Shown: positions 1 to 55,065, counted from the first letter of the stretch. The stretch: 61,048 nucleotides of DNA from Amoebophrya sp. A120 (GCA_905178155.1 CAJINV010000003.1:5484728-5545775); one strand, 5' to 3'. Notes: generated by a model from the sequence alone, not told the origin. Numbers and translations: made by a program.

Positions 1-1003
1 GGTAGTCATGCGCCATAAGTCATCGCCGCTGTCCGACCACCGCGCACAGCTGCTTTTTACGCCAGTGCCGTCGAGCCACTCCGCGCTCGAATTCACTTGC
101 TGCAGATCCCAGCGGGCCACGTTGGGCGAGGCGCACGGAGCGTCCTTGAACATGCCGTCCATCAACAGCCCGCTTGTGCTCACTGACCACAAGGTCACGC
201 ACGGGTTTGCGCGCGCTGCCCCACGGAACATGTTCGAGGCATCCGTTACCTGACCCACCTGCCACAATCGCACGTCCGGGTCGGCGGTGAGCGCGTCGCG
301 AAACATTTCGGTCATGTCGGTCACCTTCGCGACCTGCCAGGCGCTCACGTCCGGGTTGGCCTTCGCCACTTCGCGAAACATTCCCCGCGTCACCTGAGCG
401 CTGCTCATGTCCCACTTGGAGACGTCAAGCGTGGCGGTGCCGTACTTGAAGAACATCTCCGCAAAATTTTTGCCCCTTTCGGTGTTCCAGACCGAGACGT
501 TCAGGTTGGCGACCGCCGCGGCATCGTGGAACACGCGGGTGAAGTCGGTGACTCGCGAAACGTTCCAGTTGCCCACGTCCGGGTTCGCGGTCGCAGCTTC
601 ACTAAACATGCTCTGCAGCTCCTCCGCGCGACTCAAGTCCCACGCGGCGAGGTCGGGTTCCGCTTTCCCGGTCCGCTGGAACAGGTTCTGGAAGTGCTTG
701 CCGCTGCCAACCCGCCAGTTGGTCACAGAGGACGACCCGCTGGCGGGTATCTGCACCTTCTGCGCGCCCTGGAACGCAGCCCGGAAGTCGGTTACCTGGG
801 ACACGTCCCACTGCTCCAGGCCGGGCAACAGCGGCACCGCGGGCGCCTCCGAAAACGCGTAAGAAATATCGGTCACCCGCGAAACGTCCCAGCGGCTCAA
901 GTCATTCAAGGTGTCCAGCTTGCCCGCGTTGCGAAAGATCGCCTGCAAGTTGACAACCCTCGACCAGTGCCGCGCGAAGACGTCGTTGTCCTCACTCGTC
1001 AGG
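1..1003 (-). CDS. Exon of giant gene: BspA/DUF285 repeats, runs off window
   Basis: Reads TSEDNDVFARHWSRV...LSRWDVSRVTDISYAF...GLEQWDVSQVTDF; paralogous to exons at about 7455-8950. Confidence 0.85.
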
Positions 1004-4000
1004 TATCAAGTGTAAAAATGTCTGGGTCTGGAAGAGTGCATGTTTGTCATGCTTGTCTGGCATGACTCTCAAATCTGTCATGCACGTTACTCAAGAGCGC
1101 CACTTTTCTGTCATGCAGCAACGCAGTTTGTCATGCAGAATAGGCAACACCTAGAAGCTCAGAAACTTGTCATGCTGAGCCAGCACTTGTGGTCTCCTCA
1201 TGATACGCCACCCAGCAGCACAAGTTTCCAGACCCACACATTTTTGCACTTGATATCAGGGCCGTAATCTCGCCGCTGTCCTCAAACAAGCGCGCGAGGA
1301 GGTTGTGCCCCGTCTTCCCGAGACTGCGTACCCGGCGGTAGGCGTTTTTGAACCCGCGCATTGCGGCGTCCGTGGTCACAGCGTGCACGAGACGTGGATC
1401 ATTGGTGTCTTTCACACCCGCAAGCCCCGCGTCCCCGAGCGTTATCGTAAGGAAGAATCCCTCACCGCATATCGAAAAGGCACGTCTCAGGAGATTTGCA
1501 TTGCTGACTTGTGACCACAAATCGTCTCTGTCTTGCAAGAACGCAACCTCACAGGTTGCCGCACTCTGCAGGCGGTTTGTAATGCTGTTGGCCCTACAGC
1601 CTAGACGTTTGCCATGCTTAGCGCCTAGCCCAAAACTTCCCTACTCCGGGTTGATAAAGGCCTGCTGTCCTCTCCAGCAAGACAAATCTGATTTGTGTAC
1701 GCAAATCCAGCATCAGAAACTTCGTTTTGATATGGGGAGGGGGGATTTTTCCTTTTGATAAGCGTTGTTACGGTTTCGGGGGATCTCCACCCAGCGAGGC
1801 TCCCACGGATGACCACTTCGAACGTGCCCGTGGCGGTGTAGTTTCTTTCCACGTACAGAACCTGGAAGGGCGACGCGCTTCCCGTTGTAGATGGTTGGTC
1901 CGGCCCGGGATGGACGATGTTTACCAACTGCCCGGAGTCCGACTTTATGCCCTGCAAAGATGTTGGATATCTCTATCTGAGCCTGGGTCTGGAAACAAAC
2001 TTTTTTGCATGCAGCTCTCGGTGTAAGAACTATTACTATTCATCATATATTCTAAACAGCGAAGGAAATAAGCTGGTCACTCGTGGTCACAACTCAGCGA
2101 AGTGACTTAAATTTCCAAGGCGCGACGGACATTCATCCGAGGACTCGGAAGGCCCCACAAAAACGGGCGACGCTGGAGCATCCACGTCTATCTGAGACCT
2201 CGTTGGCCATACAGAGTGGGAGCCTGCATAGCAAACATCTGCACTCTTTCTCTTCCAGGAGAGGGAGACCGCGCCCTAGTATCGAACATAGAACTTTGCA
2301 ATGCATAAAGCTGCCGTCGCCCCAGTACACCGTGAACGCGTGTGATTCAGCGCCGTCGAGCGGAAGCTTTACCGATGCGGGAGCGCTCGCGATCTCGATT
2401 TGCACCCGGAACGGATCGTCGTCCGGGGTCAGCAAATCAATGCCCCGTCCGACGGTGGCGTTGTGCTGCGCGTCATTGAAGTGCTCTTGCATCTCCGCGC
2501 TGCCGCATTGACTCAAAACGCCCGCGCCCACCGCCACGTCGGTAGCGATCACGTTTAGGGTCGTGTTGACCGCATCCACCGCGTAGTCGGACCAGAAAAA
2601 TTCGGCGAAGTTTATAACTCGCTCAGGTGTTACAATCTCAAACGTTACAATAGAGTTTGGAAATCTGTGATGCTAAAACAACCGCACCGACATTGCCATT
2701 GTCCAGCGTAGCTTTGGAGGCAAGCCTCCGCAGGTGCTGGAACGGCATAGGGTCAGAACCGCGAAAACATCGCGCGTATTTCTTCATCCCCGGGCACTCT
2801 TATATATTTCGACCATACTTTGCGCTCACAACTGTAATAGAAGCAGACAGGGAGCCCGCGACTGAATCACACAGACCCCCAGAGACCTGCTATACTATGG
2901 AAATCAGTATATGGAGACTGACAGACCCAAGCCGTATAAAGATCTCAAAGATCTACAGCAAGGGCGTTTTAGAGCTTCCACACAGACAGTGCGACTACAA
3001 GACATAGATGTGGATATTGAAGTTCTGCGGCCCTTTCTGTGGACTGGGGGGGATACCGACACAGAAGCTTTGATTTATTTTTGGTTGAAGAGAAGGCTGC
3101 AGAGCGAAAACGAGACCTGTAGTCACTAGTAGAAACAATAACACAAAGACAAACAGAAGCAGCACCATGAGATAATAACTTACCTACCCCTTACCTAAAT
3201 ACCACACGTCGATTAGTCGCACAGCCGTGTGGTCAGGTCCGCGACATCGATCATGGTAGGACCTTGTTGGAAGGTCTGACTTTTAGCGAGAAGTGGGGCA
3301 CTCCTTATCTCCAACCGACTAACCACCGCCGTAGCATGGGGACAAGGCAAGCTGCATACAAAGTCTGGCACTCCTTCCCCATTCCGCGTTTCATTCTGTC
3401 CGCTGCCATAGAATCGCGGCCCTAGCAGGGGAACAAGGCGAGCCGTGCGAGGACTGGAGCCCCCACTTGTATTCCGGCCATGATAGCATCGCAGGAACGC
3501 GTCGGAAAATCGGGGTTTTTTCCGACTTCGGAGACCGGGGATTCCCGACCGCCACTAAAGCGGCAGCCGTAGCATGGGGACAAGGCGAGCTGTGTAGAGG
3601 TTCTGCTGATCCTTCCCCTCTTCGCTTCTTCCTGCTGTCCTCGACCGTCTAATCGCGGCCATAGCATGGGAACAAGGCGAGCCGTATTCCGCAATTTCCG
3701 GCTGTCGCCGTCAGGGAGTGATTATAGACCACGTTCGGAGGCGAAAACTTCGCCTCCACAAAGAGCCGGAAAAGCCTAGGGACTGTGAACTAGGGTTAGA
3801 TGCGGACCTACCTCTTCATCTAGCACAAAGGAAGACTCACAGTCGCGGCGGGGCCTGCATAGGAGCTGCAGGTACAGAGGAGTGCACACCAGGTCGCATG
3901 ACAACGTCCAACACCAAGACAGCCCATAGTTCGCTTTTCCAGCTCTCCGCGAGGCAGCCACATCTTGTTAGTAAACGCAAACCGCGTCCCGCCCAGCGTA

Positions 4001-7000
4001 GTCCGGCCTGCGTTTGGTTCGGAGAAGGGCGGGGGTCGACTGTCCAGGCGCGCAGCCGCCTGTCTTTTGTTTTTTTTATTGTTTTATTTATGAAGAGGGC
4101 AGCAAGGGTGCGAGTTTTCGATGTTGCTACCTAGTACTATCATGAGCTCCCAAAACTACACAGGCCCGCGGTCGCTTTCTGACCGCAACTATGCGGCAAC
4201 CACGCCTTTTGTTTTCTCCATTCACATCGTTTCCAAAATGTCATGCAAGGGGCCGGAGCAGAAAACCAAAAACAGACGCAAACCAGAACAACGAGATGAA
4301 CCAGAAGACGAGGGATGGATAGCACGCATGTGCAGTTAGTTGCGCCTTCATCTCTGGGCAACTCTTGTCTTTCGCCCAGTTCAGCTTGGCCTGCGTCGTT
4401 CCCGTATTGCATCTCGGTTTCTGGAGCCCGTGGGCGTTTCGCGGTGCCGGCGAAGGGCCTTGCTCCTGCCCCGGTACGTTAAGTGCAAAAGAGGACGCAG
4501 GCGATCCATCTTAGTACGACTTGCTGTCGCTCATCGGGATCGCTCGACGACGACGTTACTCACAACGACGCCCTCGTGCCGAGCGAACACTGGAGACCGG
4601 TCCACTTCGCTATTCCAGGCGCGCAACTGGCTCCCGGGGTACCATAGTCGAGCCCTCCTGCGGCGGTGCTTCGACCGCGTTGTTTGCGGCACGCTTTTGC
4701 CGACTCGCGGCCGAGAGAAATAAGGGCGTCTTCAAGAGAAAACACAAAAGCACCCGGTGAGAATGTATATCTATACCCGCCTGGGGCAGCAGAGTGTGAC
4801 CACTGCGATGGAGATTTAGTAGCAGTTGCGGGCTGATCATAGAAACTCGAGGTCAATTTGTTGTAGCGCATCTGTGAAAATATCGTCGTCGTGGTCGTCC
4901 TTGACCGCCTTGGATTCAGAGGCCAGTTCTCCTTGCCCACTGTGCGCGCCCTGGTTGCCACGCGGCCGGGTTGCAGCGTAGTGCACCCTCGTCCAGTGGA
5001 CTAGTTCGATCACTGGGTAATCCGGGCTGTTTGCGTCGTCAGAGGCTGGAGCCCCGATGGGCACTGGCACGGGGTCCTTCGGGTGGGAGGTGGTTAGATG
5101 TATCTTGATCAGGTACTCCTCCGCGAGCGCGGTCAAAGTGAAATGGTCGCCCCAGGTGCCTTCCTGTGCCATTTCCAACAGGTATTCCTGCCACTCGTGA
5201 TCCGAGCAGCCTAGCTGAGCCTGATAATGTGCCCGGTTTACCTGGAGGCGATTGACAGCCTTGGCCCGCAGCTCCTGGTGACGGAGCTCGGACCCCGCGA
5301 ACAACATCTGGCTGAGGGCTCGGAACTGACAGTTTCCGTCCCCTTTGGTTGGCAATCGCCCGAGGTTTCTGGAGTGAAGTCGCGCGTCTATCCGCTCGTC
5401 ATTCTCCTGTTGCTCGTGGAGGGCGCGGAGGGATTCTGCGACTGCTTGGACCTCCCATTTGTCCTGCCCTTCTCTTATATCGCTGCCCCGCTGTGATTGC
5501 TGACGCCCTGATGCCGGCCACTTCGCGTTCTCCTGCCTGTGATGCAAGAATGCATGATCTAGCCAATTCTCATAGGATTGCGCATGACAGGTTCCGGAGC
5601 GGGAGCATCAAACCCCACTACAATCTGGCGAAATTTGTATTGCAGAAAGTGGAACGCTCTGCGAGTCTGTCATGCTCATCATGCAAGACAAGTCTCAGAT
5701 TCTATTGTAACGTTTGAGATTGTAACGTTTGAGCAAGTCATAAAGTTCGGCGTCGCGCACGTGGCGTTGAGAAACATCTCCTTCAGGTTGCCGATCTTAT
5801 GAGACTACACAACTCCCCCTCCCCCTCATTTGTAATGCAAAACTCCAAATTATCCACCCTTTGCCCCTTGGCACTTTTTGCATGACAAGTTCTGCAACCT
5901 CAAACAGCACTACAATCCCGGGTGAATTTGTCATGCAAAACCTGCATTCTTGCCGACGCTTGTATTGCTGTTTGTGCCAGACAAATGAGGGGGAAGGGGA
6001 GTTGTGCACTGTCATAGACCTTGCGCACATTCCAGAAGGAAACCACCGGGCTAGCCTTCACCGCGTTCGCAAACATCCGCCGCATGCTGCGAACGTTCTT
6101 GGTTTGCCAGCTGGTCACGTTCGGTTTCGCGAGTGTTGCCGCCTCGAACATCGAGGCCAAGCTGGTCGCCTGGCGAACGTCCCAGTCGTGCACGACGGGA
6201 TTTGCGGTGGCCGCGTCCTTGAAGAGGGCCGTAAAGGTTTTTCCACTGCCGGTGTCCCACGTATCCACCACCGGGTCAAAGGCCTGGGCATTGGCGAAGG
6301 CGTAGCTGAAATCGGTCACCTGGGACACGTCCCACTTCGCCACGTTGAAGTGAGCCAGCGGGGTGTCTTGGAAAATACTCCGCAGACTCTTCACCTTTCC
6401 CACCTGCCAATCGTTGAGGGCCGTAGTCGCGTAGTTAGCGGCGAGGCCGGCGCTCGCCGAGGTTTCCAGTGCGTCCAGCCCGGAAAAGGTGTAGGACAAG
6501 TCCGTCACTTCGGCGACTTTCGAGGCCCAATTTCCCAGCCCAGGCAGGCGCACCAGCTTGTTCACATTCTGAAACATGCGGGTCATGCTCGTCACCTTCG
6601 AGGTGTCGTACGAAGACACGTCGAGTTCGGTCAGGCTCTGGCAGCAGTCTTCGAACATGGACTGCGTGCTATCCTGAGTAAAAACGTACCCACGTAATGC
6701 AGATTTGCAAAGACAGGAAGACTTGTAATGCGCATCCCCATGAGAGCCATTTCCAGTCGTGCTTTGGAATTTGTGATGCTGTGAACAGAGTGAGCAGATG
6801 AATCTGTGATGCGGCTGCACTTGCTAACCAGCACCACACTGCGGAGCGCAATTTGTCATGCGTGACTCCCTAAACTCCTAGGTTTGTGTTGCAAAATCCC
6901 CATCCTGACTCTGGTGTGGGGACGTTTTTACTCAGGATACGTGCTGGTTGCGGAGGCCCAAAAGTTGCCTAGCAACTGCGCCGTCTGTGGCACCTCCGGC

Positions 7001-10000
7001 ATCATCGAGGACGCCTCCTGGAACAGAAACGGGAAAAGCGATCCGCCGCTGCTGCCGACCGCGCGCAAAGTGCGGAAACTGCGTTTCCACATCCGCGTCC
7101 ATTCTACCGCGGTCGTCGTCCCCGAAGTACTAGATGTTGCCGAGCTCAATATCCTTAGGTCCTTCCAGCCAACAATATTGCCGCGTACAACAACGGAATA
7201 CGTGCCCGTGGCTGCATACGTGTGATTGAGAGCCCCTCGGGACAGATCGGACGCGCCGTCGTCCGTAAAGCAGTCCGAGCAGCGCACGTAAGAAGCAAAA
7301 TCCCCCTTGGACGCCGTCGTTCCATCGCCCCAATGTACGGTAAACCGGTTCGCCGTTTCGTCCTCGTCGATTTGCAGGCGCACACTGAGCTGAGACGCGT
7401 CGGTGAGCTCGATATCCACGCGGAAGGGGGAGTCACCGGGGCAGTTGGGGTCGCTGCCGTCGGTGGTCATGCGCCACAAATCATCACTGCTGTCCGACCA
7501 CCGCGCGCAGCTGCTTTTCACTCCCGTGTCATCGAGCCAGCCCAAGCTCGCTGAGGCGTCTTGCAGGCCCGCCCATCTCGCGATGTTTGGAGTCGCGCAG
7601 GGTGCGCCTTTGAAGAGTCTGGTCATGTCGAGTTCTCCAGCGGCGCTCGAGTTCACCGGCCAAAAGGTCACGCACGGGTTGGCCCGTTGAGCCCCACTAA
7701 AGGCCTCCCGCATGTCGGTCACCTTATCAACTGTAAAAATGTCTGGGTCTGGAAGAATTCATGTTTGTCATGCTTGTCTGGCATGACTCTTAAATCTGTC
7801 ATGCACGTTACCCAAGATCTGCGTTTTTCTGTGATGCAGAAGCGCAGTTTGTCATGCAGAATAGGCAACACCTAGGAGCTCAGAAACTTGTCATGCTGAG
7901 CCAGCATTTGTAGCCTCATCATGAGAGGCTACCCAGCATCACAAGTTCCCAGACCCAGACATTTTTACATTTGATACACCTTGCCAACCTGCCACAGCCG
8001 GACGTCGGGGTCCGCCTTAGCGACGTCTCCGAACATACTCCGGATCACGCGCGCACTGCTCATGTCCCAAGCGGCTACCTTGAGATGGGAAGAGGTGCTC
8101 TCTCGAAACATCGCCGCAAAGTGCCTGCCTTTCTCGGTGTTCCAGGAAGACGTGTCCAGATTCGGATACACGGCACCGGCGGCACGGTCGAACATGCGCG
8201 AGAAGTCCGTATCAAATGCAAATTTGTCTGGGTCTGGAAGTTGATTCTAAACTTGTCATGCTGTTTTTGGACTCTGAAAAAATTTGTATTGCATGACCAG
8301 CAAGAGGGATACAATCTGTGCTACACGGACAGGGCATTTCTCAGGCGGAAGGCGCATCAAGAAGCCCTCTAAAAGTAAGTCTCGTCTGCGAAGCTAGGTC
8401 ATGCATTACAGGCATCATGGGTCATGAGAAATATGCATGAGAAATCTTGCATTCTAATTCTTCCAGACCCAGACATTTTTGCAATACATAGTCCGTCACT
8501 TGAGACACATTCCAGGAGCTCACGTCCGGATTGATAGCGGCTGAGTCCCCGAACATGTCCTGCACCTCTTCCGCGTGGCGGAGGTCCCAGCTCGCCAAGG
8601 TCGCCGCGATCTTCGAGCCAGTTCTAGCAAACATGCCCTGAAAATGCTTCCCGCGCGCCACGGGCCATGCTTCGATGGAATTGCTACCCGTGCTAGCGAT
8701 CTCCAGTGCCTGACCACCCTGGAACATCGCCCGAAAGTCTGTCACCTGCGACACATCCCAATCCTTGATCCCTGGCACAGTATCGACGACCGGCAACTCT
8801 GCAAAAGCATACGACACGTCCGTCACCTTTGACAGGTCCCAGGTCTGCACACTCGCCACGGTCTGCAGCTTGGCCGCCCTGCGGAAGAGAGCGCGCACAC
8901 TCCGCACCTTCGACCAGTGGCGGAGGAACACTTCGTTGTCTTCGCTGGTGAGCTGCGTGACCTCCGAGCTGTGCTCGTACAAATGGGCAAAAAGGTTGTG
9001 GCCGGTCTTGCCGAGGCTCCGGACCCGGCGGTAGGAGTTTTTGAAGTTTGCCACCTCCCCGTCGGTCGTCGTTACATACGGGAGCCGGGCGTCGTCGGTG
9101 TCCCGGACGCCCTCCAGCCCAACGTCACCCAGGGTTGTCACGGTTTCCGCCGACACCCACCCTCCGAGGCTGCCGCGGATGACAATCTCGTAGGTGCCCG
9201 TCTGTGTGTACGTTTTGTTTGCGGTGAGCACTTCGTGGTAGGATGTGCCGTTCGCCGCCAGGAGGCCGCTGACGCCGAGGCTGGCCGGGTAGACCATTTT
9301 GGAGAACTGTCCGGAGTCGGCGTTGGTGCTGCTGTCCCCCCAGAAGATCGTGAACGCGTGGCCCCCTCCCGTGGCCGCGGCCAGGGGCAGACGTACATTC
9401 AACGGCGCGGTGACCACTTCGATTTGCAGTCGGAAGGGGTCGTCGTCTTCGCCGGCAAGCAAATCCAGCCCCCGACCGTATTCCGAATCCTGCACGGCGT
9501 CGTTAAACTGACCCTGCATTTCGGTCGTGCCGCAGTGGGTGAGCATTCCGGCGAAAACGCCCACATCGGTGGTGGTCAGCCCCAGACTGGGATTCTCCGC
9601 ATCCACGGCGTAGTCGGACCAGTATCAAATGCAAACATGTCTGGGTCTGGAAGAATGCAAGTTTCTCATGCTTGTCTGGCATGACAGACTCTCAAACAGA
9701 TCTGTGTTGCGTCAGCACGAAGAGGCTGCTCTCTTGCATGTCATTGTTGTTGTTAGACGGCCCCCCTGTGGTCGTCCTCACGGCGTCATCATCATCTTGG
9801 CCCTCGGCTGTTTTGGACAGATTTTGGTTGTGCCCAGCAAGATGCCGGATGTCATGCAAAATAAACGCAGTTTGTCATGAGGAATACGCAACACCTAGCA
9901 GCCCAAAAAGTTGTCATGCTTGGCTGCGTATTGCATTTGCAGTGCGAAAAATATCATTCATTTTTAGCATTTACACGCAGACATATAATTTGCAGTCCAT

Positions 10001-13000
10001 AACCAGTAGTCCTCCGCGAAGTTCGGAGTAGCGCAGGTGGCGTTGTAGAAAAATTCCTGGAGGTTGCCCGCCTTGCGGACATTCCAGAACGAAACCACGG
10101 GGCTGGCCTTCACCGCGTTCGCGAACATGCGCGTGAGTACACGGACGTTGCCCGTTTGCCACCCGGTCACGTTGGGCTTCGCGGCCGTGGCCGACTCGAA
10201 CATTGACATCATGTCCGTCACCTGGCGCACGTCCCACAGAGTCACAGCTGGGTTCGCCAGCGGCAGGTCGCGGAACAGGTGGGCCAGGTTCCTTGCGCTG
10301 CCCGTGTTCCAGTTCCCCACTACCGGCTGCGCCGAGGCCGCGCCGCGGAACATCGCACCAAAGTCCGTCACGGCGGAGACATCCCAGCTCGACACCGCGG
10401 GATCCGCGGCAACCGCGTTCTCGAACATGCGGCCGAGGTGCCTCGCCTTGTTAGAAACCTGCCACTTCGAGGTGTCGGGAACCACCTCAGCGCCGGCGTC
10501 GCGAAACATCCCTTCGAAGGTCTGCACGCTAGAAACGTCCCAGTTTTCCGTGGACGCCGCTGCTATCGTCACCTGCGTGCAGCCCGCGAAGAGGTTACGA
10601 AGGCTGGTGGCGGCCCCCAGGGCCCAGGACCCCAGGCCAGCAACGGTCGTTATCCAGTGCAAACATCAATATGTCTGGGTCTGGAAACTTGTGACGCTAA
10701 AATGTGGATGATGGAGACACTTTCGAATGCACCAGCCCAGCATGACATCTTTCCAGAACGCTTTCTCGTAGGCAGTCCGCATGAGAAACTACCGCGTTTT
10801 TGCATGACAAAAATGGCTGCCACTTCTTTTGTTGGTTATGCAATCCAGATCTACTACCAGAAATGTAGAGCTAGCATTACAAATTCCAACTTTCCAGACT
10901 CAGACACATTTGCATTTGATAGTCGTGAGCCCGGAGCAATCCTGGAACGCAGCGTCGAAATTGCGGACCGTCGACAGGTCCCAGGTCGCGGTGCTGAGAG
11001 CGGTGAGGGTGGCCGCTCCGCGAAACATTCCGCTGATGCTGCTCACCGCTGGCGCGCCCCAGTACCTGCGCAGCAGGGACGGGCGGACCGAGTAGGAGCT
11101 GTCCCCCAGAATGGTGGCCCCGTCGTACAGGTTCTGCAAAAGCCCCGGCCCGTGGGGATCCTGGTAGCCGACGTTCAACAGCTGCGTCCACGCGCGCTTG
11201 AACGTCGTGTATTGGTTCTCCTGTCCAGATGAAGTCCTCGAGGGCTGCCACCCGGTGGTGAGTCCGCGAAATCGCACCGTCACCACGTACTCGCCGGTCG
11301 TACTTATCGCACAGAGACAGAAAGTTAACGCTTGCCATAAGCATTCCACTTGGATTAAGAACTTTTTCGCGATAGGATACGAGAAGGACGCACGGAAGAT
11401 GAAGATCTGTCCTGCAGCAGCATCTCTTGAGCAGAAAGTACTTAGTTCCAATTACTGCCTGCCCAATATTAATGAATGTCATGACACTTCTTCATTCCTA
11501 CTTTACTTTGTCAATTATTCTACCCGGGGCCATCATCATTTCCAAATGCCAACAGCAAAGACCAAAAGGCGCGCTAAAATTTTCTGCAGGATATTCTCGT
11601 AAGTATACGAAAAAGAGGTCGTCGCAGCCACCGCGGTCCCGCTGTTTGCCGTGGCGTCCCGTGTCACATTCGGGCCACTACCGGGCACGCCCCAGTAAAC
11701 CGTGACGCGGCTCGCGTTGGAGGAGCTTACAGCTTCGGGGAGAAGCGGCAGCGTCACAGTGTAAGGAACGGTGTCGATCCGGAGTTTCACGCGGAAGGGG
11801 TCCTCCTCCCCGGGACAGGCAGTGTCGGCCCCGTCCGCCGTCGTGGCCAGTTCCTCTGCCGTGGGCCCCGACAGGTCGGCAATATCGTTAAAGTGTGACT
11901 GGTCAGAGCAGACTTGATTAGCCAGAGAAGTGTCGCCGGCGGAGAAGACTCCGGCGCCCTGCAGCATCGTATCGGGATCAGGTCCCAATTTCACACTCGC
12001 ACGGAAGTTGAGGCCCGCCAAGTTGGGCGTGGCACAGTGCGCATTGACAAAGAGATTCTGCACAATTCTTGCAGCAGAAACGTCCCAGAGCCCCACACAT
12101 GGGACTGCCACTTTTGCGCCGTTGAACATCTGTTGCATGTTCGTAACCTTGGACACGTCCCAATGCGTCACGTTCGGTCGCGCGCTGATCGTCTTTGAAA
12201 ACATGAAGCTTAAGTCCACGGCATTTCCCATCGACCACTCCCCGGTGGCGGGGTCCGCCTTCCTCGCCTCGTGGAACATCGTCTTAAAATTTGAGCCCCT
12301 GCTTGTGTCCCAGGCGGAGGTGTCCGGCGTCGCTTCCACTGTGCCACGAAACATTTCCGCGAAATTTTCTACCTGGCCGGTGTTCCAGTTCGCGACGTCC
12401 GGGTTCACTTTCCCGGCCAATTTAAACATCCCCTCTAAAGTGGTCACGGCACCGGTCTGCCACGCGCCAAGGTTGTCGTCCGGGGGAAATTCCAGCTCAG
12501 CACAATCCTGAAACATTCCCTCAAAGCTCTCTGCACTGGAGACGTCCCAACCGCCGATGCCGGAGATCCGCGTGACCTTGGAATCTTCGAACGCAAAATT
12601 GAAATTGCGGACCGTCGACAGGTCCCCTCGTACAAGGGAAGGCACACCCGTACCAGAAAAGGAAACGACTTTTTGTACTTATTTGCATTTGCGGTGTGGT
12701 GATGTGACGAAACTCCGGTAGAGGAACGAAAACCTGCCACGCAACATACATAGTGACTGCATCGCGAAAAAGAAAATGTAGTGCAAGCTTCTTAGACAAA
12801 AAAATATTTGTCAGGCGAGCTTGAAGAGCTGCCCTCGTCCTGTCGTTGGTTTCCTGGATGTTAATTGTTAATCGCGAAAAAGACAAAAAGCTCACAAAGG
12901 TACCACGAAGATCAAGATTTCTGAAGATGATAAACAGACAACAGTCGCCACCTTTTGAATTTGATGCTTTTCGTGCCACGAGACTGCGTCACAAGCAATA

Positions 13001-40000: not shown

Positions 40001-43000
40001 GGGTCTAGAAAGTTGTGACGCGGAACTGTGGATGATGAAAACATTTCCGAAATAAAAATGCAGCCAAGCATGAGAAGTTTGCGGAACGCTTTCCCGTAGG
40101 CGTTGCCTTGCGCATGAAGAGAAGCTGCATCTTCGTAATGACAGTTCCAGTTGCAAGACTAGCTAGCATTACAAGTTCCAATTATTTTCCAGACCCCGAC
40201 ATATTTGCAATGCATAGGGTCAGTAGTTAGGCAAAAGATCGTCTCCACGGCGCCATGAGCCGTATCGTGTCTACAGTAGTTATGATCGCCCGTTACGCCG
40301 TGGGAATGCGTATGAGGACTCTGACTTGACCACTTCTGGCACTGCCTCCCGGATCTCGTTCGGGTCTGGCACCCAACGTAGCCGCTGCCGTCCCCGGGAC
40401 TATTCGGAATCCTTTCGTCGCAAGCACTTTGTCGCTTCTCGGCCCCAACGGGATCGCAGAGCTCGATCGGCACGTTCGGATCCAGAGTGTAGCACCAGAT
40501 CGTGGGTTGATTGTCAGTTGTGTCCCCGGGTCGCGGAAAATCGGGGTTGCGGCAGTAGTTGTGGTCCCCAACGGACTTAAACGAACTTGCGTCGTGCGGG
40601 GTCTGGCTCGTCCACTTCTGACAGACTCGCCCGGACCGCGTCCGGGTCTGGCACCCCACGTAAGCTGTGCCCGCGCCTCTTAGCGTCTCGTCGCACGGAC
40701 TTTGTCGCTTGCGAACCAAGGGATCCTCCAACGGCAACCCGTCGCCCGTTCTCAAGCTCGGGTCCGAAGTGTAACAAAAAATCGACGACTGTGTCGAAGA
40801 AGATACCAGTGTGTGCCGCAAGAAGTTGTGGTCCCCAGCGTGGGCCGCGTTGGTACCGGAACCCCCGTCAAACGTATCGTGCGTGTGCGGTGACTGGTCC
40901 GTCCACTTCTGGCACGGGACGCCCTCCAAAGTTCGGGTCGCGCAGCCGACGTAATTTATTGTCCATTTCGCCGCGTCGGTGTCTTCATCCACGTCCGCCT
41001 CGTCGCACAGAGACGTGTCGCTGTGCGGCACAGCGTATCGCTTCGCGGACGCGGCCAACTCGCAACCCCCCGTCGTGGCGTCCACGCGGCAACTGTTCAC
41101 CGCCCGTTGCCGCCGCAGCATCGCTCCCTCCTCGCCGGTTACCAGCACCTGAAAACCGCGGTCGGACTCCGGCGAGAGGTCCTCCACGTTCAGCCCCTTG
41201 TGGTAGGTGCACTGCTCTGTGTGGCCCGAGGTGTAGTGAGGCGTCTCCGGCATGGAAGAGAAAAAGTTCCGCCGCGAACCGTCTGCCGCACAGCTGGAGG
41301 AGGTCGAGGACGCCGTGGCGCGGAAAGCGATGCGCACTTTGTACACCTGGGAGACGTGCTCCAGGTCCAGCAGCAGCCACGGGCAGCGCTGCTCCCGGGA
41401 CACCCAGGATCCGGTTGTGAAGGATCGATCTAAAACGAACCGAGGCTCGTTACTCGAGGCTCCGGTCGTCCGATAGGCCTCACTCGACGCCAGTACGTGC
41501 GTTCGATCATTTGGGAGGAGGGATTCCAGCTGCGCCTCCTGCCGGCCCCACCTCAGCGGGGAGCCAAACATGTTATCAAATGCAAATATCTCTGGGTCTG
41601 GAAGAATGCAAGACTTGGTGGGTTGGTTGGTTGGTTGGTTGGTTGGTTGGTTGGTTGGTTGTTTGGTTGGTTGGTTGGTTGGATAGCGCCTGTCGCCGGT
41701 AATGCATAACCAGGCAGCTGCGCAGATTTTTAGAGGGCCTCCTGATGCCTATTCCGCATGAAAAATGCCCTCTACATGTAAGTAGCACAAACTGGACCCC
41801 TCTTGCTGGTCATGCAATACTGGTTTTTTTAGAATGCAGCGACAGTGTCATAAGTTGCAACCTTCCGGACCCAGACATATTTGCAATGCATACACGTCGG
41901 GGTCTAGCAACGTGGACCCGTAGCGCGCTCCTGGCACGGGGGAGTGCGGCTCCGCGTTCTGCGACGCGGGAGGGCCCGCCGCGTCGCCCCAAAAAACCGA
42001 GAAGGAGGCCCGACTGTGATCTGGGAGCGGCAGCCGCACGCGCAGCTGGGACTCCCCGCTCGGAATCTGAATATTCAGCAAAGCGCGAAAGGGACTGTTA
42101 TCGTACGAAAAAAGTGTTTCACTGTAAGGATTTTGCAGGTTTTGCATCACAAGTTTATTCTACATGACAGAGAAAATTTGCCATGCAAGGTTCCTAAGGG
42201 AAAACACACCTAAAAATCCACTGTCTTGCAGCATGTGTAGGAAGACAAACACTTGTGAGATGCAATTTCTGCATTACAAGTTTACAGTGAAACAGTTTTT
42301 TCTGGCGATAACTGTCCCCGCGGCTGCAATGCTCGTCGCGCACCACTCCGGTGGAGGCGTCAACTACGTGATGCAAAACCTGCGCCGGGCATGCGCTGAT
42401 CGTGTTGGTGCCAACAGGCTGGAGCTGCGCGACCGAGGCCGACGTCGCCGCCACGTGGACACGAGGTAAGAATGTTACCAGGGGGAACGTGACCGCGTCC
42501 TTGTAACACCCCATGGCAACTTCACCATCGGCCAGAGGATTGGCCGGAGACGAGTCGACCGATGTTGCAATATCAGCTCCGCACGGATCGTCAAGCCACA
42601 GCTGCATGCCTGCAACTACTACGTGCCACACATTATGTTCGTTCACCCGCAGCTCCTGCAGACACAGACCGTTGTCCGAGTTATACTTCGTCACGGCGAT
42701 GGACCTTATGCCGGCTCTCGGGATATGGAGACTACCGAACGTCGCCTCGACCCACGCGTCTGGTGTCACAGGCACCGACACGCTCTCGGTGGCTTCCTCG
42801 CCAGTTGTGGACTTCACCGTGATGTCAAAAGACCCGGCGCCCGCGCTTACACTGTGGCGACACGCTTGTATACTTACCCTGAGCGCTGTGGGCGACGCCG
42901 TCTGGTGCTGCGGGCTCGGAAACAAAACGGGCAGCGGCCACCGTGCGTGCGTGGATTTAAAGCAGTTGGCCCCCCTACTTGTGCAGTCATTCCCAAACCA

Positions 43001-46000
43001 CCACTCCTCGCTCAAGAGGGAAAACTGCTGTCCGAGGTCATCCTCCAGTTTGATACTCGACAGGCAGACGTCGTTGGAAGCTGTGGTGGCATATGAAACG
43101 CCTGCAAGATACACGATGCCGCGCTGTAAGAGAAGGGGATTCGCAAAGTCCTTCCGCAGAGTCGTGCCCGGGTTAGGAAGATCGAAATCGAGTGTGTGCA
43201 CTGCGAAGTTGGTCGCGTCTTCTCCCGCTCGAAGGAGCATCTTCACTGGGACGTCTCCTCCGCTGTCGGAGCTGTACTCCGTGCTGCACGATTGCACCTC
43301 GACGGTGGCTAGCTGCGCGACCGAGGCCGCCGCCGCCACATTGACAGGAGGTAAGAATGTAGTTCGCATGTGGAACGTGACCGCGTCCTTGTAACACCCC
43401 ATGGCAACTTCACCATCGGCAAGAGGATTGGCCGGAGACGAGTCGACCGATACTGCAAGATTAGCTGAGCACGGATTGCCAAACCACAGCTGCATGCCGG
43501 CAATCACCACCTCGTAGTCCCTGGGTTTTTCCGCGATCCGCAGCCCCTGGAGACACATACCGTTGTCCGTGTTATAGTTCGTCAAGGCAATGGACCTTAT
43601 GCCGGCTCTCGGGATCTGCCAACTACCGAACTCCACATCGACCCACTCGTCTGATGCCGCAGGCACCGTCGACATGGTCTGGGTGACTTCCTCGCCAGTC
43701 GTGGACTTCAGCGTGATGTCTAAGGACCCGGCGCCCGAGCTTGTACTGTGGCGACACGATTGTATCTGTACACGGAGCTGATTGACCGGCGCCTGCTGCT
43801 GCGCGCTAAGAATCAAAACGGGCAGCGGCCACCGTGCGTGCGTGGATTTGAAGCAGTTCGCCCCTCTGCTTGTGCAGTCATTCCCAAACCACCACTCCTC
43901 GCTTAGCAGGATAAACTGCTGTCCGAGGTCATCTTCCAGTTTGATACTTCGCAGGCAGACGTCGTCGGAAGCTGTGGTGACATATGAAACGCCTGCAAGA
44001 TACGTGATACCCCGCTGTAAAGGAACGGGATTCGCGAAGTCCTTCCGCAGAGTCAGGCCAGGGTTAGGAAGATCGAAATCGAGTGTGTGCACTGCGAAGT
44101 TGGTGTCGTCTTCTCCTGCTCGAAGGAGTATCTTCACGGGAACGTCTCCTCCGCTGTCGGAACTGTACCCCGCGCTGCACGATTGCACCTCGACGGTGGA
44201 CACAGAAATGACATTACTCGGCTGATTTTTTACACTCGTTGCAATGTCGATATAGTCAGCCTTGAAGGAGAAAGCGTCCTCGAGGGCCAAGGCAGTCACA
44301 TCCTGCGTCATTGGATACGGGGAGGCCACCACGCCTTCACCTGTCCGGTCGCGCCAGTCGTGCCCGGCAAACGCAGTCCCGAACCCGCAGGCCTGACCGT
44401 CGGCGAAGCCCGTCATGTTCGAGGCAACTGCGCGCCCGGTCAGGTTCCAACGGCCCAAGCAAACAACACCGGCGGCGGAGGATCCCCGAAGAAACGCACT
44501 GAAATCACGCCCCGGCCCCTGGTGCGGAACTACCAGGGACGCGCCGAACGTTGCGAACGCGGTCGCCGTGAGGTCCAAATGTGGCACCACGCCCGCGCCG
44601 CCCATGTCCTCGAACATCCCGCCCAGCTCCGGGACGCGACTCAGGTCCCAGCGCTGCAGGTCGGGGTCTGCATGTCTGGCTTGGGCGAACAGGCTCTGCA
44701 AGGCCCCCGTGCCTTCTGCACCGGTCGTGGTCGTCCCTTCGCGCACGTACACGTGGGCTATGGAAGTGTCAGAGCCGAAATTGACGAAATCGAAAAATTT
44801 GCGACGCACAAAATCGATGTTAGTTGGAGCTTCAGTTTTCAAGTGGCGCATCGCAAATTTCGGGAGCACCCAAATCCAGTCTGTCATGCTGCTTGGGCAA
44901 AGAAGACTGCTCCTGTCATGCTACTCTGGAAGCACATTGCATACCCCAAAACAGGCTTACAGTCGGTCAAGTCTCATAATTTGCCTGCTCCCCTCCAATT
45001 CAGGCCTTCAGTGGCCTACATTTTATGCATCACAAGTTTTTCGATTTTGTCGATTTCGATTCTGACACATCCATATGGGCCCCGCAGATGGTAAGCCGAT
45101 CATCGCCAAAGCCGTAAAGCGGTGCGTTGGAGGTGCGGTCTGCTTGGGCCAGCACGTACACATATTTCACCGGTTGCTTCGCCCACAGTTTGCCCGCGTC
45201 CAGGGAGACCACCGTGCCGCCTTCGCTGCCCGGCGCGACGCGCCCGAGCTGAATGTAGTCCACGCCCGCCACCATCTGTCCGCCCGTGACCAGGGCGTAC
45301 AGCTCTCGCGCGATGGCGGCGTGGTTGCTCGATTGATCTTGGTCCACGGTGATCGGGGGATCCAACCACACGGTAGCATGGTCCAGCCGTGCCAGCACGC
45401 CCGGATCTGTATCCTCCCGGTTGAACAGGTGCAGGTGGGACAAATGCCGCCTCACCCCGCCCCGCCACGGGGTGGGTTGCACCCGCCACCAGTTGAGACC
45501 CGTCTCCGGGGTGCTCGAGGTAGCGCCGGTCCCCGCTGTGAAAGCGCAGGTAGCGCCCCAATCCGAGTTGCCACTCACGTAGCTGAGCGGGTTTGTCGCC
45601 ACTTTGTCCAAGTAACTGCTGCTGCTGGTATCAATACTGGACTGCTGGGCCATCAGGTCTGCCGCGGCCACCCGTCTTGTGGTATCCGTCAACCCGCCCA
45701 TACCGTTCTCATGAGGAAAACTCCCTCCTCCCCAAGAACCGCATATTGACGATGCACGAAAGCCGAAAAAAATTATGCTGCTTGTGCCTATTGGTGCGCG
45801 CACTATCTAGCACACTTGGGCTGGCAAAAATCTGTGCGCGCGTTTTAGTCGACAGTCGAAACTACATATTGCACTATCATGCTAGTAAAGGGCTGGACTT
45901 CTTCTAGAAAGAACCTCAGCAGATCTAAAAGTCGCCCCCTATCCCTTGCATGCCGCAAGAAGACAAAGACGACTTCGGTCTGGGCCTCATACCAATCCCC

Positions 46001-49000
46001 TTTCGCGTATTTTGGCGAGGAGTCATCTATGAAAGCGCCAGAACCGAAATTCACTACAGAGTTGCAATAATTTGCGACACATGATAGAATCGCTACCAGT
46101 TAGCAGCCCAATCTCTGAGCGGCGCGTGACAAACTTCTGCAGCACCCAAATCCGGTTTGCCATGCTATAGCCGTTGAGGCAAAAATGACATCTGTTATCA
46201 TGCTCCTTCGGTAGGTGTATCTCGAGCCCTAAAGAGGCCTAGTACAAGCGGCCTCACTTGCCTTCTCTGCAAGACAGGCACTTTTTGCCTCGCATATTGT
46301 ATAATTATGCCCATGCAAGTTTTTCAACTTTGTGTTTGTCAACTTCGGTCCTGACGCTTCCATAGCATTTTTCCTCTCAATACGTGAGGCTCGGGAAAGC
46401 CCACACACTCGTGTCCGCGTTCAAAAACCGAGAGCCCTGGAACATACGGGAAAGCTATCGCGGAGGAGATCCCCCCTCCCCAGATTGAAGCGGCACGCTT
46501 CTGAAACTTCGTCACACTGATTCGCGGCTACCGATCGTGCCTGTCTTGCAGGGGGGCAAATCCAGAAAGTCCGCCGCATTGTGCAGGCGGTTTGTGATGC
46601 TTGCTGTTACTAGAGCCACAAGGCGTCGCGCGTCCGTCATGCTACCTCAGCGCCTACCTCAGAACATCCCTGCCCAGGCTTTGCGTCTGCCTGCAGTCCC
46701 TCACACACTGCAAGACGGGGCTGATTCGTGTACGCAAATTCCGCATCACTGATTTCGATTCAAATACTTACGAGAAGGGGGGATTTTTCTTCTTGATAAA
46801 AGCGTCAAGGCATTCGGCGCCTCAACGTGTCGAAGATTGTCTAACCCCAGCCAATTCCCGTAGCTTCCTGTGTAAAAAAGTGCCCACCCTGTGAATATAT
46901 ACGAGTACAGCTTCTTGCCGCGCTAAACAGACCGCGGCGCTGCCCTTATTTCTGTCTCTTCCTCCAGGTCCAGCATCGACGACGAATTACGCGTAGCATG
47001 CTTGGCCTTTCCATGTATCTATGTGCAAACTGTGGCCGCGGTAAGTGGCTGTCACGCAAGCAAGCTCTGTCATGCCGACACCGAAATGCGAGCATCCTCA
47101 ACATCTACCGGCCACCGTGCCAACTTTCCAACAGGAAATCATGCAGCACAGCATCGCACTCACTTACTTGTGCCCAAACTTGCCATGCCCAGGCCCATCT
47201 CGCAGCAGAGTTCCTGAATTTATGTGCGCTGGAGGGGCGTGGCTCGCGTACTTACTAGTACCTTCTTCTCGGGGCAACATGAAGGTTATTTGGGGCTGCT
47301 CCACAGGGTGGGGACGTTTTCGCACAGGATACTTCGTTAAATCTGAACAAACTTCCCACATCCGTGACGGTGGACGCCATCAGCCGCCGCACGGACGGCA
47401 GCTTGACCCCCGGTTCGAAGCCCTCAAACAGAGACGGCGCGGTAGCCAAGGAGTCCAGAGACCACGCCGAGCTTGCGGAGGAGCCAAGGTCTCCGAAGTT
47501 ACCCTGAAGCTCTCCCTTGTAGGAACTCATCGCCGGTCGCTATTCTGAATAAAAACGTCCCCCCCCAGAGTTATCATGCAAATCTGCATGCCAAAAAAGT
47601 TCCTCGTGCGGAGCTCCGTGGGAACCACTTTCATTCTAGTCGTGTTTTGGAATTTTTCATGCTACAATTATCAGCGTCATGCGCTAGATCTGTGACGCTT
47701 CGGAAGTAGCTCAACAGGGTTACACTCTACAGGGACAAGCTTGTCATGCGAAACAACCAAAGCTGGCTGGTTTGTCGTAGCAGATTTCCCATCTTGACTA
47801 TGGTGCGAGGACATTTTTACTCAGGATAGTCGCAGCGTGGAGGTCATCGTCCGACTCGTCACTCTGATCGGGGTATTCAACAAAGACTGCAGCTGCTGCA
47901 GACCGTCGTGAGCGTAGGCGTAGTCGGCGCTCTTTCCACCTGTGTCCGTCGGCCGCCCCGCTGTAGTGGTCTTCGCACTCCCGGGTATATCCAGTGCCGT
48001 CCGAACTAGAGAGAGGTCGGACCTTGCTCCGAGAAGTTGTTGGTGGTCCATCGCAGGGAAAAAGTGTTTACAGCGACACGACACTTGTCGCAACTTTAGC
48101 AACACAGACTTGCCCTGCATTGCAGAGATGAAAACTTGCCATGCAAAGATCCTACGGGACGAAAACACGTATGAAACGAGGCTCGCCATGCCTTTCCAGC
48201 ATGAGAGAGGTTGTCTGTCTTGCACGTTCTGCAACACAATGTGTAACTGTAAAACGCTTTTTTCGTTGCATATGGTCCATCCCTTGTTCATTCGCCGTTC
48301 TTCCCCGAGCCTCATACTCCCCGGACAGGTGGTTTGCAAAGAAAACTTGCTCGTAGGCAGAGCCGTCGCTGGCAAACACGAGCGCGCGGTTTTCTCTGGG
48401 CATTGGCATCAGTGCTGAGGAGGTGGTGCTCGCCGGACTCTCCTGGAACAACGCTGGCCTTGCGAAGTAGTCTTGTGAAGCCACGGCACCAGCAAGGTGG
48501 CTCAGCGGGTACGGAACACCGCTGGCGGCACTGATCGTATGCTCACCTCGTCCCCTCGCGTCTGGTCCTTGGATGCCGAGGTCGGACGGCAAAAATGTTC
48601 GGCTGCGTCGGGTACACTCTCCGAAAATTTTCACTTCGTTCAGCTGCAGCCTCCGGCCGATCGTGGTTTTCCACTGGCGGTCTGGTAACTCAACAAACAC
48701 GTAGCGCCCGACCGCAACTCCCGGCGGGCAGAACGCCGTGAGTTTCCACATAGGCTCGGCCGCGTCGGCAGGAAGTCCCGCAAAACCAACGCGCTCGAAG
48801 CCGTACCGCATCGTCCGCAGGACCCGAGCCGGGGATATGCCGTACCTTTCCACGCCTGAAGCTACCTCATTCGCCCCGGAGGGGTCCAGGCTAAAGGATC
48901 CGCACCATACCACCCGTCCGCGAGGAGCGAAGCCATCTCCCTCGTCCTGTCCATCTTCGTCGTGCCTCGCCGTGGACTGCGCCTGACCCTGCTGCGACTC

Positions 49001-52000
49001 CAGATCCACCTCGCCAGCGGCACCAACAGAAAGTGGCTGTCCTCCCTCGTCCCCCAAGACAACGTCATCGATATTGTAGTGCGTCATCGGGTTGTAGTTG
49101 TGACAACCTGAGCTGCCGAATGCACAACTGGAGTAGTATCAAATGCAAATGCGTGTCTGGGTCTGGAAGAATGCACGTTTGTCATGCTTGTCATCTCACA
49201 TCATGAGTCTTCAACTTGTCAGTAACGCATGAGCAGGAAAAACGTGTCTCGCATGTATGCAAAAATGCAGTTTGATGCCATGCGGAAAGCAAAACACATT
49301 GGAGTCCAAAACGTTGTGGAGGTGCGTGGCTGCGTATTGCAGTCGTGCGTCCAGAATTCACAAACTAGCATCACACGCTTTCATCCCACACCAAGACATA
49401 TTTGCAAAAATGCATAAGTTGGAAACCCCAACGATGACACGCGAATTCGGCGTCCAGGAGTAGGCCTGCTCGGTCGTGCACTCTGACAGACCATCCATGA
49501 AGAGTAGGCACGGCTTTGTGGTGAATATTTCAACGCGCGTGATCCGCCTCGGCCGATCATAGCGCCCTGCCACATTCATTTGGTACCATGCAAGGCGGAT
49601 GAACCATTTGGGCACGTACGCATCCGTTCGAGTCGTACTGCACTCCGTCGTGTGGTCGCCGTCGCTGCAGAGCCCCGCGTGGTTCATCATGTGGTCCGTA
49701 CTCAACTCCGCGGGTCCAAGCAAGCGAATCTCGTTTGACAAAACGCGACTTCTGGTGGTCGTGCGCAGTATCCTGAGTAAAAACGTACCCACACCAGAGT
49801 TGTAATGCAGATTTGCAAAGACAGGAAGACTTGTAATGCGCATCCGCATGAGAGCCATTTCCAATCGTGTTTTGGAATTTGTGATGCTGTGAACAGGATG
49901 AGCAGATGAATCTGTGATGCGGCTGCACTTGCTAACCTGCACTACACTGCAGAGTGCAGCTTGTCATGCGTGACTCACAAAACTCCTAGGCTTGTGTTGC
50001 AAAATCCCCATCCTGACTCTGGTGTGGGTACGTTTTTACTCAGGATACGCAGCAGTTTTGCGGTAGCCGACGAGAGAGAGCCCCTGCTGCCATCCTCTGC
50101 CACGACCGATGCGGGCGGCGAGGAGGTTGTTCTTGGGGTACTACCTCCAGACCCGCCTGCTGGTGCAGATGAAGACCGGCCGGAGGTAGAAGCGACCTGA
50201 TTGGCTGGAACAAGGGGTAGCACTTCCTGCTCCTCGAAAATCAGATCGGGCAACGCGTTGGAGTACGGCTGCGAGACCGTGCGATGCTGCACAGAATCCT
50301 GTGTGCGGTAGAAATACGTATTCGCAGCGAGGCGGTCGGCCCCCTCGACGTCGCTGTCGCTGAGGCGGTCTGCCTGCAGGGGGTCCTCACAAATGGGATG
50401 GTCGGGGGCAAGATCAGGATTGGTGAACCCATCGCTGATCCCCTCCGCGCGAGCCTTCGCATACAACACCCCTCCAGAGTCGAGGGGCGTTAGCCCGGCC
50501 GCACAACTGCGAAACCTCTCGCACGCAACGCCCTCCGCTACGCGGAAGAAGTTGCACGCCAAGTCCTCTGCGCACTCCGCCGCACATGCGCTGTAAGTGT
50601 GATACTCTGGCAGGGTGTCAACGTCGGACTCGATCTTGTAGGATTCGACTCGGTCGTTCTCTGGAGCACAGTTTGCATTGGTGGCCATGCGAAGGAAAGA
50701 AACTCCTACTCCCAACACGTCGTCACTGGTGAAAGAACGAGTCTTCGATGAGCGCGTCGACCGCCCTAGCGGCACACAAGCCTCCAACACCGTTCCCGGG
50801 TCCGTAGTAATGCACCAGATTATCAAATGCAAAAATGTCTGGGTCTGGAAGAATGCAAGACTTGTCATGCATGTTTATCATGACCCATGATGCCTGTAAT
50901 GCTTGACCTAGCATCGCAGACTTTTAGAGCGCTTCCTGAACCTTATACACCTTCCGCATGAGAAATGCCGTGTCCGTGTAGCAACAACGAACTGTCCCCC
51001 TTTTGCTGGTCACGCAATAGAATTTTTTTTGGATTCCAAAAACAGAATGACAAGTTGCAATCTTCCCGACCCAGACATTTATTTTTGCAGTTGATACAGA
51101 TGCTCGTGTACCCATTCGGGTTGCGGCAGAAGTTGTGGTCTCCGAGTCCTCCGTCGCCATCAAGATCAGTGCCGTGCGTGTGCGGAGACTGCGCCGTCCA
51201 CTTCTGGCACAGCCTTCCCGTGATGGTCCGGGTCTGGCAGCCACGATAGGTCGCGCCGCTGTCCAGGGTGGACATGCTTTCATCGCAAAAAGTGACGTCG
51301 GTTCGCGGCAACCGCAAGTGCGGTGCGGTTTGCAACTGCAACTGCAATTTCCGCGCGCGATCGTAGTGGTCCACCTTACGCAGGTAGGGCATCCCTAGTG
51401 GATTCGTGTCCACATCCTCGAAGTCGAAGGGAAGCCCGAAGACTTGAATCTCGGCCACGGCGAGACGGCGAAAGCTATCGGCGCTCCTTTTCTTGGCATT
51501 CACCCACAGGTACCTCCCCTTCTTTCGGTAGTACTTACAATTGGCAACGAGCCGACGCGGTGTCGATCGGCGGTCCCGCATACTCACCAGAGAGGGACTC
51601 GTTTGCACGGACGGAGCCTGGTCGAGCAAAGACCGGCGATTCAGCTCGGAGAGGTCCGCTCCGTACGAGTGGCCAAAGTACTCCGTTGGAGAGTACGACA
51701 CATCGTTTCCGCATCTGCCCCGCGCGTCGCTTGCCACCAGCAGGTCGAAGCACCCCCTTCCGGTGTCATCATCTGTTCCTGAGTAGCTGGAACCAGTGTC
51801 CCCGCACACAGGAATCTTGGAAACGCCGGTTTGGAGGGGTACGGTGTGTGTGGGGTCTACCCAATCTTTCTGCGCGCAAGAGACCTCGCCAAAATCCCGG
51901 TCCACGAACGAGAGAGTGCTCTCGCCTTGTGTGTCAACAGCATCGGAGAATGCGAGGGTGTCGCGGCCACGGTGGCTAAAGAGGTCGAAACCGCAGTCCG

Positions 52001-52221: not shown

Positions 52222-52290
52222 TATCAAATGTAAAAATGTCTGGGTCTGGAAGAATGCAACTTGTGATGCTGCATTTGGATTCCAAAAAAA
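52222..52290. mobile_element. Left end of a family A introner; remainder displaced beyond the window by nested elements
   Basis: TATCAAATGTAAAAATGTCTGGGTCTGGAAG preceded by ccttc; no matching right TIR in the window. Confidence 0.85.
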
Positions 52291-54610: not shown

Positions 54611-54750
54611 GCGCAGGATAAAAAGAAAGAACCACGCGGCCCATCATAATAATGACGAGCAACGCTCTATGCTAAATAACAACGCTTATTCTACCAAGTC
54701 AATAAGTCAGCTACTAGGTCCATCTAATTAATTAGTTAGTCTATGACTAC

Positions 54751-55029: not shown

Positions 55030-55047
55030 TTCATTCTGACTCACACT

Positions 55048-55065
55048 TGGTGCCGCCGGTGAGAC
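55048..55065 (+). promoter_or_regulatory. Primer-binding site candidate
   Basis: TGGTGCCGCCGGTGAGAC is complementary to a tRNA-like ...GGCACCA 3' end; tRNA not identified. Confidence 0.65.

Follow-up and report, generated by a model that had tools for sequence, protein, structure and literature searches.

The background to this analysis is how the non-canonical introners of Amoebophrya, tens of thousands in number, come to move and to be spliced. The analysis covers, at its full length, a 61,048-nt stretch of the Amoebophrya sp. A120 genome (GCA_905178155.1, CAJINV010000003.1:5484728-5545775), referred to as the window. A120 has no known transposase, and its U1 is reported missing, according to the passages of PMC7789003 covered here. 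An initial annotation of the window had pointed to one internal motif, TGTNWTGC (complement GCAWNACA), as a cis code shared by introner families, and had offered three roles for it: binding sites for a transposase or related factor, a missing splicing recognition signal, or self-complementary zippers. The motif is a real, selected feature, as its enrichment, its conservation above matched interior and terminal inverted repeat (TIR) positions and its fixed spacing bear out. Among the three roles, DNA-level binding sites of the transposase type fit best, and the motif is probably a mobility code rather than a splicing code.

Scoring TGTNWTGC and its complement across the window gave 130 matches, 77 forward and 53 reverse. 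The most enriched window 8-mer is TGTCATGC/GCATGACA, seen 48 times where an order-2 Markov model predicts 2.3, and the roughly five copies of TGTCATGC that the annotation had counted in 1004-1255 are exactly five, at 1045, 1076, 1109, 1129 and 1168. Elements were collected by an unbiased inverted-repeat and flanking-direct-repeat search, followed by a targeted search with manual curation. This yielded 47 small TAT…ATA elements totalling 13,635 bp, most of them with a 5-bp target-site duplication (TSD); 41 carry the exact motif, and 124 of the 130 matches fall inside them (9.1 per kb), far above the 7.5±2.4 matches (maximum 14) in 100 dinucleotide shuffles. The remaining matches comprise one in 27,706 bp of exon, two in a 2.8-kb nested insert and three in 16.9 kb of other DNA. 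The motif had been called rare in exons, which holds as a count for the window and stands for background level, not depletion: across 68 open reading frames (ORFs) from other loci plus the longest window ORFs, 26 matches were seen against 24.2±3.4 in synonymous shuffles. A hint of exon depletion in the window (1 vs 4.5-5.8) was gone once these further ORFs were added.

A wider set of 419 deduplicated elements combined 31 from the window with 388 from 150 loci of another assembly; these loci were fetched with one TIR pattern, so the set is biased to the searched TIR (195/419). The finder used for this set demanded TA[T/C] ends and allowed at most one mismatch in the TSD. One TIR has at least 163 matches in another assembly; the elements recur genome-wide in families. 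Clustering resolved 24 TIR groups and 144 subfamilies, and the motif, as claimed, is present in most of them, being carried by 414/419 elements and 23/24 groups. Profile extension gave a full 11-bp motif, RYYTGTVWTGC, with about 4.5 copies per element and 0.1 in shuffles. In elements of 813, 834, 1104 and 3130 bp, motif copies lie near the ends; such confinement to subterminal regions is a mark of the transposase-binding repeats of TIR elements.

That the carrier families have unrelated TIRs proved correct only for TIR positions of about 11-30. The tips share TAT[C/G], and an end logo of all 419 elements shows A at positions 11-13 in 85-92%, with groups E, F and G deviating from this A run. 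A perfect 5-bp direct repeat flanks 354/419 elements, a 6-bp repeat at the same boundaries flanks none of the 419, and in the unbiased inverted-repeat search the top class was ‘TSD 5 + TAT’ (22, with no other class above 7). Once motif and TIR are masked out, interiors are mostly unalignable between groups (z<3 for most of 105 pairs), and strong alignment scores are confined to a few related groups. Since the TAT tip and the 5-bp duplication are common to the groups, these are likely branches of one TAT…ATA, 5-bp-TSD superfamily, and a single selected, phased 11-bp motif would then join many ‘unknown’ families into one TA..TA superfamily. The TIR patterns had no match in the viral contigs or prokaryote genomes searched.

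The elements themselves have been published. In the passages of PMC7789003 covered here, A120 introners have inverted repeats consisting of TAT, seven variable bases and at least three A, with 3-5-nt direct repeats and non-canonical ends, and the window elements agree with this account (Farhat et al. 2021) and that of Gozashti et al. 2025 (PMC12130899) in all these features, the direct repeats here being a uniform 5 bp rather than 3-5 nt. Family lengths of about 106, 149, 209, 222, 252-260, 278 and 305-322 match window groups (PMC12130899, 40 of 58 A120 rows covered). Both sources, in the passages and rows covered, treat the families as separate and ‘Unknown’ where the motif here ties them together, and describe no internal motif, spacing or conservation. 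Nor did passages of PMC11282704, PMC12005148 and PMC9860276 hold anything relevant on a subterminal or internal introner motif. No report of the motif was found in the literature searched, Roy et al. 2023 and supplementary figures lying outside that search.

Substitution rates were obtained from three-way comparisons within subfamilies, with matched CpG-free interior 8-mers as controls. Relative to these controls, motif bases are substituted 2.3-3.4 times less often (10/1054 vs 98/3067, 78/3033 vs 631/10856 and 87/2358 vs 979/9219 substitutions; all p<0.0001), and they also change less than TIR positions 11-30, with no conservation at the free N position or in the 6-bp flanks. The initial annotation had held that decay at the rate of the rest of the interior would undo its proposal, and that refutation therefore fails. 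The same rates bear on the idea that the motif has no function and is left over from common ancestry, internal duplication or CpG decay. All groups have the TAT tip and 5-bp TSD, so common ancestry is likely, and the window elements are CpG-poor (0.69) and TpG-rich (1.36), as such a relic would have it; the slow change of the motif amid interiors diverged beyond alignment largely refutes this account, to which we attach very little probability.

The arrangement of copies points to duplex DNA. Modal positions of the first inward copy (n=20) fall at 33-34 bp (9), 41-45 bp (10) and 56 bp (1) from the element end, giving a Rayleigh R of 0.86 at 10.5 bp that none of 20,000 uniform draws matched. 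Same-strand pairs 31-33 bp apart number 15.5 vs 1.9 in the null, a spacing present in 13/15 groups with at least three members, and opposite-strand spacings cluster at 15-17, 34-35 and 45-49 bp. B-DNA has 10.5 bp per turn, and steps of 10-11 bp are a property of the duplex; the 10-11-bp and three-turn steps point to proteins on one face of B-DNA. Nucleosome-type 10-bp AA/TT periodicity was not found in the elements.

Opposite copies might instead act as the proposed zippers, folding the intron RNA or the excised single-stranded DNA so as to join its ends. Interiors are indeed predicted to form more stable folds than their shuffles (mean z -2.5, n=60), and in the predicted structures 106/326 motif copies pair with one another; against this, 163 stay unpaired despite a partner, 57 have no partner, and direct repeats at 31-33-bp spacing are the prevailing layout. 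Where the motif varies (N/W), opposite-strand copies match in 94/356 cases (26%) vs 116/387 (30%) for same-strand copies, and terminal opposite pairs in 14/46, so there is no covariation. Strong pairing and covariation belong instead to the TIRs, whose predicted pairing is 0.80 and whose left and right arms show 58 matched deviations vs 38.5±5.0, above all 1000 shuffles, although relatedness is not fully removed from that figure. The zipper role is accordingly not favoured and seems to us scarcely probable.

We then consider the motif as an RNA-level signal on the pre-mRNA, read by a dedicated splicing or excision factor. It occurs in almost every element, near both ends, and 169 of 223 coding-context elements hold both orientations. 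Gene strand was assigned by a codon model, which miscalled one of 23 window elements called coding. Elements lie at random with respect to gene sense (50:60 for the largest group and 8:8 for a group that is strongly one-stranded), and among the 223 elements the pre-mRNA shows only UGUNWUGC in 27, only GCAWNACA in 24 and neither in 3; a single-stranded reader would have to accept two unrelated words. The 10-11-bp steps again belong to duplex DNA. An RBFOX-type GCAUG reading was dropped because GA, AA, CT, GT and AT variants at the N/W positions are common.

Further evidence against such a signal comes from in-silico excision, in which each element is removed together with one TSD copy, within two host genes:

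1..15323, minus strand: host gene 1, with repeats resembling DUF285 (judged by eye); 2,646-codon frame after removal of 15 elements
23760..52221, minus strand: host gene 2, with DUF285 and kringle domains; 5,341-codon frame across 23 elements

One element boundary in gene 1 was adjusted to 3 nt, and the gene 2 frame continues as a frame of about 1,200 codons across 6-7 further elements. Because excision restores the 2,646- and 5,341-codon frames, the elements behave as introns in silico; six old, motif-less elements lie within these intact frames. Read mapping over window positions 1-15700 (X5, X6, X9, X10) recovered mostly other element copies, along with a small number of exon pieces at low depth, and no exon-exon junction, and mapping to another locus, L007 (X9, X5, X10, X7), gave no exon coverage (0 reads for X7), so this coverage is no test of splicing. 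Taken with the random orientation and with equal motif conservation whether the context is coding (93/3472) or non-coding (25/909; p=0.91; some non-coding calls may be introns in untranslated regions or misclassified), the motif-less elements make the missing-splicing-signal role disfavoured, and we regard it as very unlikely.

The reading that we consider fairly likely is that the motif forms a subterminal array of double-stranded DNA binding sites for one protein that mobilises all element families. With the copies on one helix face, a transposase or its accessory DNA-binding partner could load cooperatively next to the TAT tip; the loaded protein would pair the element ends, cut the element and reinsert it with a 5-bp stagger. 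Only lineages that keep the array would go on transposing, such that the motif stays conserved as ‘families’ arise through divergence of TIR positions 11-30 and of the remaining interior. For RNA removal the elements would depend on their TIR stem, which is self-complementary, and on the duplicated target, but not on the motif, which would decay in old copies. This suggests a division of labour with the motif array and TAT tip serving DNA movement and the TIR stem RNA removal, and makes the motif a concrete bait for the mobilising protein.

Known transposons offer precedents for such an array. In the Emigrant miniature inverted-repeat transposable element (MITE), the transposase binds subterminal repeats cooperatively, as was demonstrated experimentally, and in the passages of PMC1636448 covered, which also cite CACTA, hAT and Sleeping Beauty, Emigrant/Lemi1 resembles the introners in having a short motif in both orientations within about 250 bp of non-autonomous TIR ends, arranged differently at the two ends. 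The introners differ from Emigrant-type MITEs in that one motif spans more than 20 TIR groups with differing inner TIRs and is mostly not a TIR copy, in the helical-turn spacing, in the interruption of coding frames and in having a binding protein that is so far putative. Euglenid non-conventional introns share with introners a TIR stem that would join the ends at the RNA level and TSD-like junction repeats, and differ in their terminal consensus and in showing no internal repeated motif in the passages of PMC11282704 covered.

The mobilising enzyme would most likely be an integrase-like DDE protein, with Ginger/IS3EU-like proteins as the candidate kind. Ginger2 ends are TGT..ACA, unlike the TA..TA termini here. 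In the part of PMC10045372 covered, IS3EU/GingerRoot elements have TA..TA termini, as here, with a TSD usually of 6 bp vs 5 bp here, and Ginger2 has a 4-5-bp TSD similar to that of the introners; among A120 introner families, one bears the annotation ‘Ginger; 5-bp TSD, TA/TA termini’ in the portion of the PMC12130899 supplement covered. The DDE transposase of these groups was not found in the DNA searched here.

Several observations weigh against mobilisation by a motif-binding transposase. Pfam scans found a transposase in 0/81 locus ORFs (17 from long elements plus the 64 longest of 134 ORFs) and, leaving aside a Copia integrase and a Helitron-like protein, none in the 15 window ORFs scanned; a tblastx comparison of the interiors of long elements with the available DNA gave no transposase match. 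With no transposase found in the DNA searched, both the enzyme and its binding to the motif remain inferences. Farhat et al. report none for A120 and argue against general transposase mobilisation, in the passages of PMC7789003 covered. The phase test leans mostly on two clusters and on groups that are not independent, reverse-facing first copies spread over 34-49 bp, total element lengths show no quantisation at 10.5 bp, and a motif-like TGC in the tip occurs in only two TIR groups, unlike Emigrant, where the repeats are partial copies of the TIR. Decay of the motif after insertion, which would fit mobilisation, has support from the old motif-less copies and from older insertions (n=63, 1-2 TSD mismatches, after deduplication and with seven elements with 3-5 TSD mismatches dropped). 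The latter show excess motif changes of +0.015 (confidence interval 0.003-0.029), like control sites (+0.013); the intervals are wide, and fully neutral decay is not separable from merely weaker constraint. Against such decay, the group A motif count is steady in TSD-mismatch copies (4.33 vs 4.18), and on the shortest branches the motif is conserved where TIR positions 11-30 fall short of significance (p=0.12), a possible hint of selection acting after insertion.

Selection of that kind would suit a host protein that binds the array on DNA, marks or silences inserts and possibly aids co-transcriptional excision in a lineage without U1 snRNA. It could be a chromatin or a transcription factor, or perhaps a transposase domain that has been domesticated. 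Strand independence and helical phasing suit any double-stranded DNA binder, the short-branch pattern fits, and the reported lack of both a known transposase and U1 in A120 (PMC7789003, passages covered) leaves room for such a factor. It is opposed by the equal conservation in coding and non-coding context, the excess motif decay in older insertions, the old motif-less elements in intact ORFs, exons that do not avoid the motif and the lack of 10-bp AA/TT periodicity, and we judge it unlikely. Less likely still, in our estimation, is that one DNA-binding protein reads the phased array, mobilises introners and also marks them for co-transcriptional excision, replacing the lost U1 snRNP; if so, a transposon code became the intron-definition code of the lineage.

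The window elements are as follows, with exact motif copies given as forward (fwd) and reverse (rev):

1004..1255: group A (TGTCTGGGTCTGGAA-type TIR), TSD TCAGG, 5 fwd, 0 rev
1443..1760: group C (GGAAAAATCCCC-type TIR), TSD AGCGT, 2 fwd, 1 rev
1946..2307: old group A, decayed TSD, without exact motif, in an ORF intact after excision
2613..5742: group F, TSD AAGTT, 2.86-kb nested insert; 6/8 motif matches in the terminal arms
5798..6016: group E (GCACAACTCCCC-type TIR), 3 fwd, 1 rev
6670..6939: group B (AAAAACGTCCCCAC-type TIR), 5 fwd in steps of 48/33/49/31 bp
7725..7976: group A, 5 fwd, 1 rev
8210..8490: group A, 2 fwd and 1 rev in the interior, with a further motif copy in the right tip
9623..10001: group A, 3 fwd, 1 rev
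10651..10921: group A, 0 fwd, 3 rev
11305..11602: old element, TIR and TSD decayed, without exact motif, in an intact ORF
12627..13040: old element, left end damaged, without exact motif; frame restored on removing 3, not 5, extra nt
13366..13663: segmental-duplication copy of 11305-11602, without exact motif
14588..14878: group D (GTGAAAAATGCCCC-type TIR), 1 fwd, 2 rev
14942..15216: group E, 1 fwd, 2 rev
15324..15630: group C, right end not defined; motif at 15396, 15471 and 15560
23876..24174: group B, orientation opposite to the elements at 6670 and 49769, 0 fwd, 4 rev
24274..24534: group A, 0 fwd, 3 rev
24610..24936: group C, 1 fwd, 2 rev, 9 bp from the next element
24946..25277: diverged group A, without exact motif, in an intact ORF
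25560..25817: group F, fwd and rev copies alternating at 47-48 bp
25901..26232: group D, 1 fwd, 1 rev
28808..29144: group C, 1 fwd, 2 rev
30403..30839: group B, 2 fwd
32185..32331: short element (CACCCATCCCC-type TIR), 1 rev
32756..33014: group A, 3 fwd, 1 rev
34129..34353: group E, 1 rev
35540..35752: TIR of a type of its own, 3 fwd, 1 rev
36060..36384: group C, 3 fwd, 2 rev
36729..37016: group B, 2 fwd
37126..37401: group A, 2 fwd, 3 rev
39133..39330: TSD CAAGG, weak TIR, 2 fwd, 1 rev
39571..39936: group E, insert of about 130 bp at a motif copy, 1 fwd, 1 rev
39981..40216: group A, 1 rev
41574..41892: group A with TTGG microsatellite, without exact motif (3 degenerate copies), in an intact ORF
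42099..42310: group H, 1 fwd, 2 rev
44759..45075: group G, 2 fwd, 1 rev
45706..46382: old group C-like; its sole exact motif lies in a nested group G element, 46028-46364
46456..46798: group C, 2 fwd
46865..47331: diverged group B, 1 fwd
47541..47828: group B, 1 fwd
48049..48272: group H-like, 1 fwd, 2 rev
49137..49416: group A, 1 fwd, 2 rev
49769..50047: group B, perfect 30-bp TIR, 6 fwd in steps of 31/48/33/49/31 bp
50821..51096: group A, 2 fwd, 32 bp apart
52222..52300: truncated group A, left end only; motif at 52262

The neighbouring elements at 24936-24946 are separated by 9 bp, so that a micro-exon only a few bases long stays between them with the frame still kept, and gene 1 holds a recent internal duplication of about 1.6 kb (approximately 10920-12625 and 13041-14585) that includes an old motif-less element. 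Two inserts, at 2665-5545 (2.86 kb) and 39708-39860 (about 130 bp), each lie inside an element with a duplicated motif copy on either side, and a 46-bp segment is common to both (2748-2792 and 39795-39840, 89% alike). The larger encodes an OTU protease domain (ORF 4837-5607, minus strand), and contigs from sequencing runs jump over it, with joints 2635->5537 and 2656->5552. These motif-flanked inserts may represent a second mobile element landing at the motif, perhaps derived from a Helitron, a type with a hairpin at its end. Elsewhere, an intron-free 1,153-codon frame at 19281-22742 (minus strand) carries Helitron_like_N and PIF1 helicase domains and is flanked by tandem arrays (15.9-17.6 kb) in a region without introners. 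A further tandem array at 52925-54610, with a unit of about 93 bp rich in GGTGATCAC/GTGATCGTC palindromic words, separates gene 2 from a Copia-type long terminal repeat (LTR) retrotransposon (about 54750-61048) with integrase and RVT_2 matches, several frame breaks and LTRs that are near-identical by eye. Among the other loci, L015 contains an 813-bp TAT…ATA element (1537-2349) with an extra internal 62-bp inverted repeat, in which an integrase match was not found; A120 families 38 and 196, published at about 810 bp, belong to the same length class (PMC12130899, rows covered). Since the window elements are CpG-depleted and exons are not (1.12), there is a hint that the elements are methylated. 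A C-5 cytosine DNA methyltransferase gene lies at 2635-6090 of locus L017.

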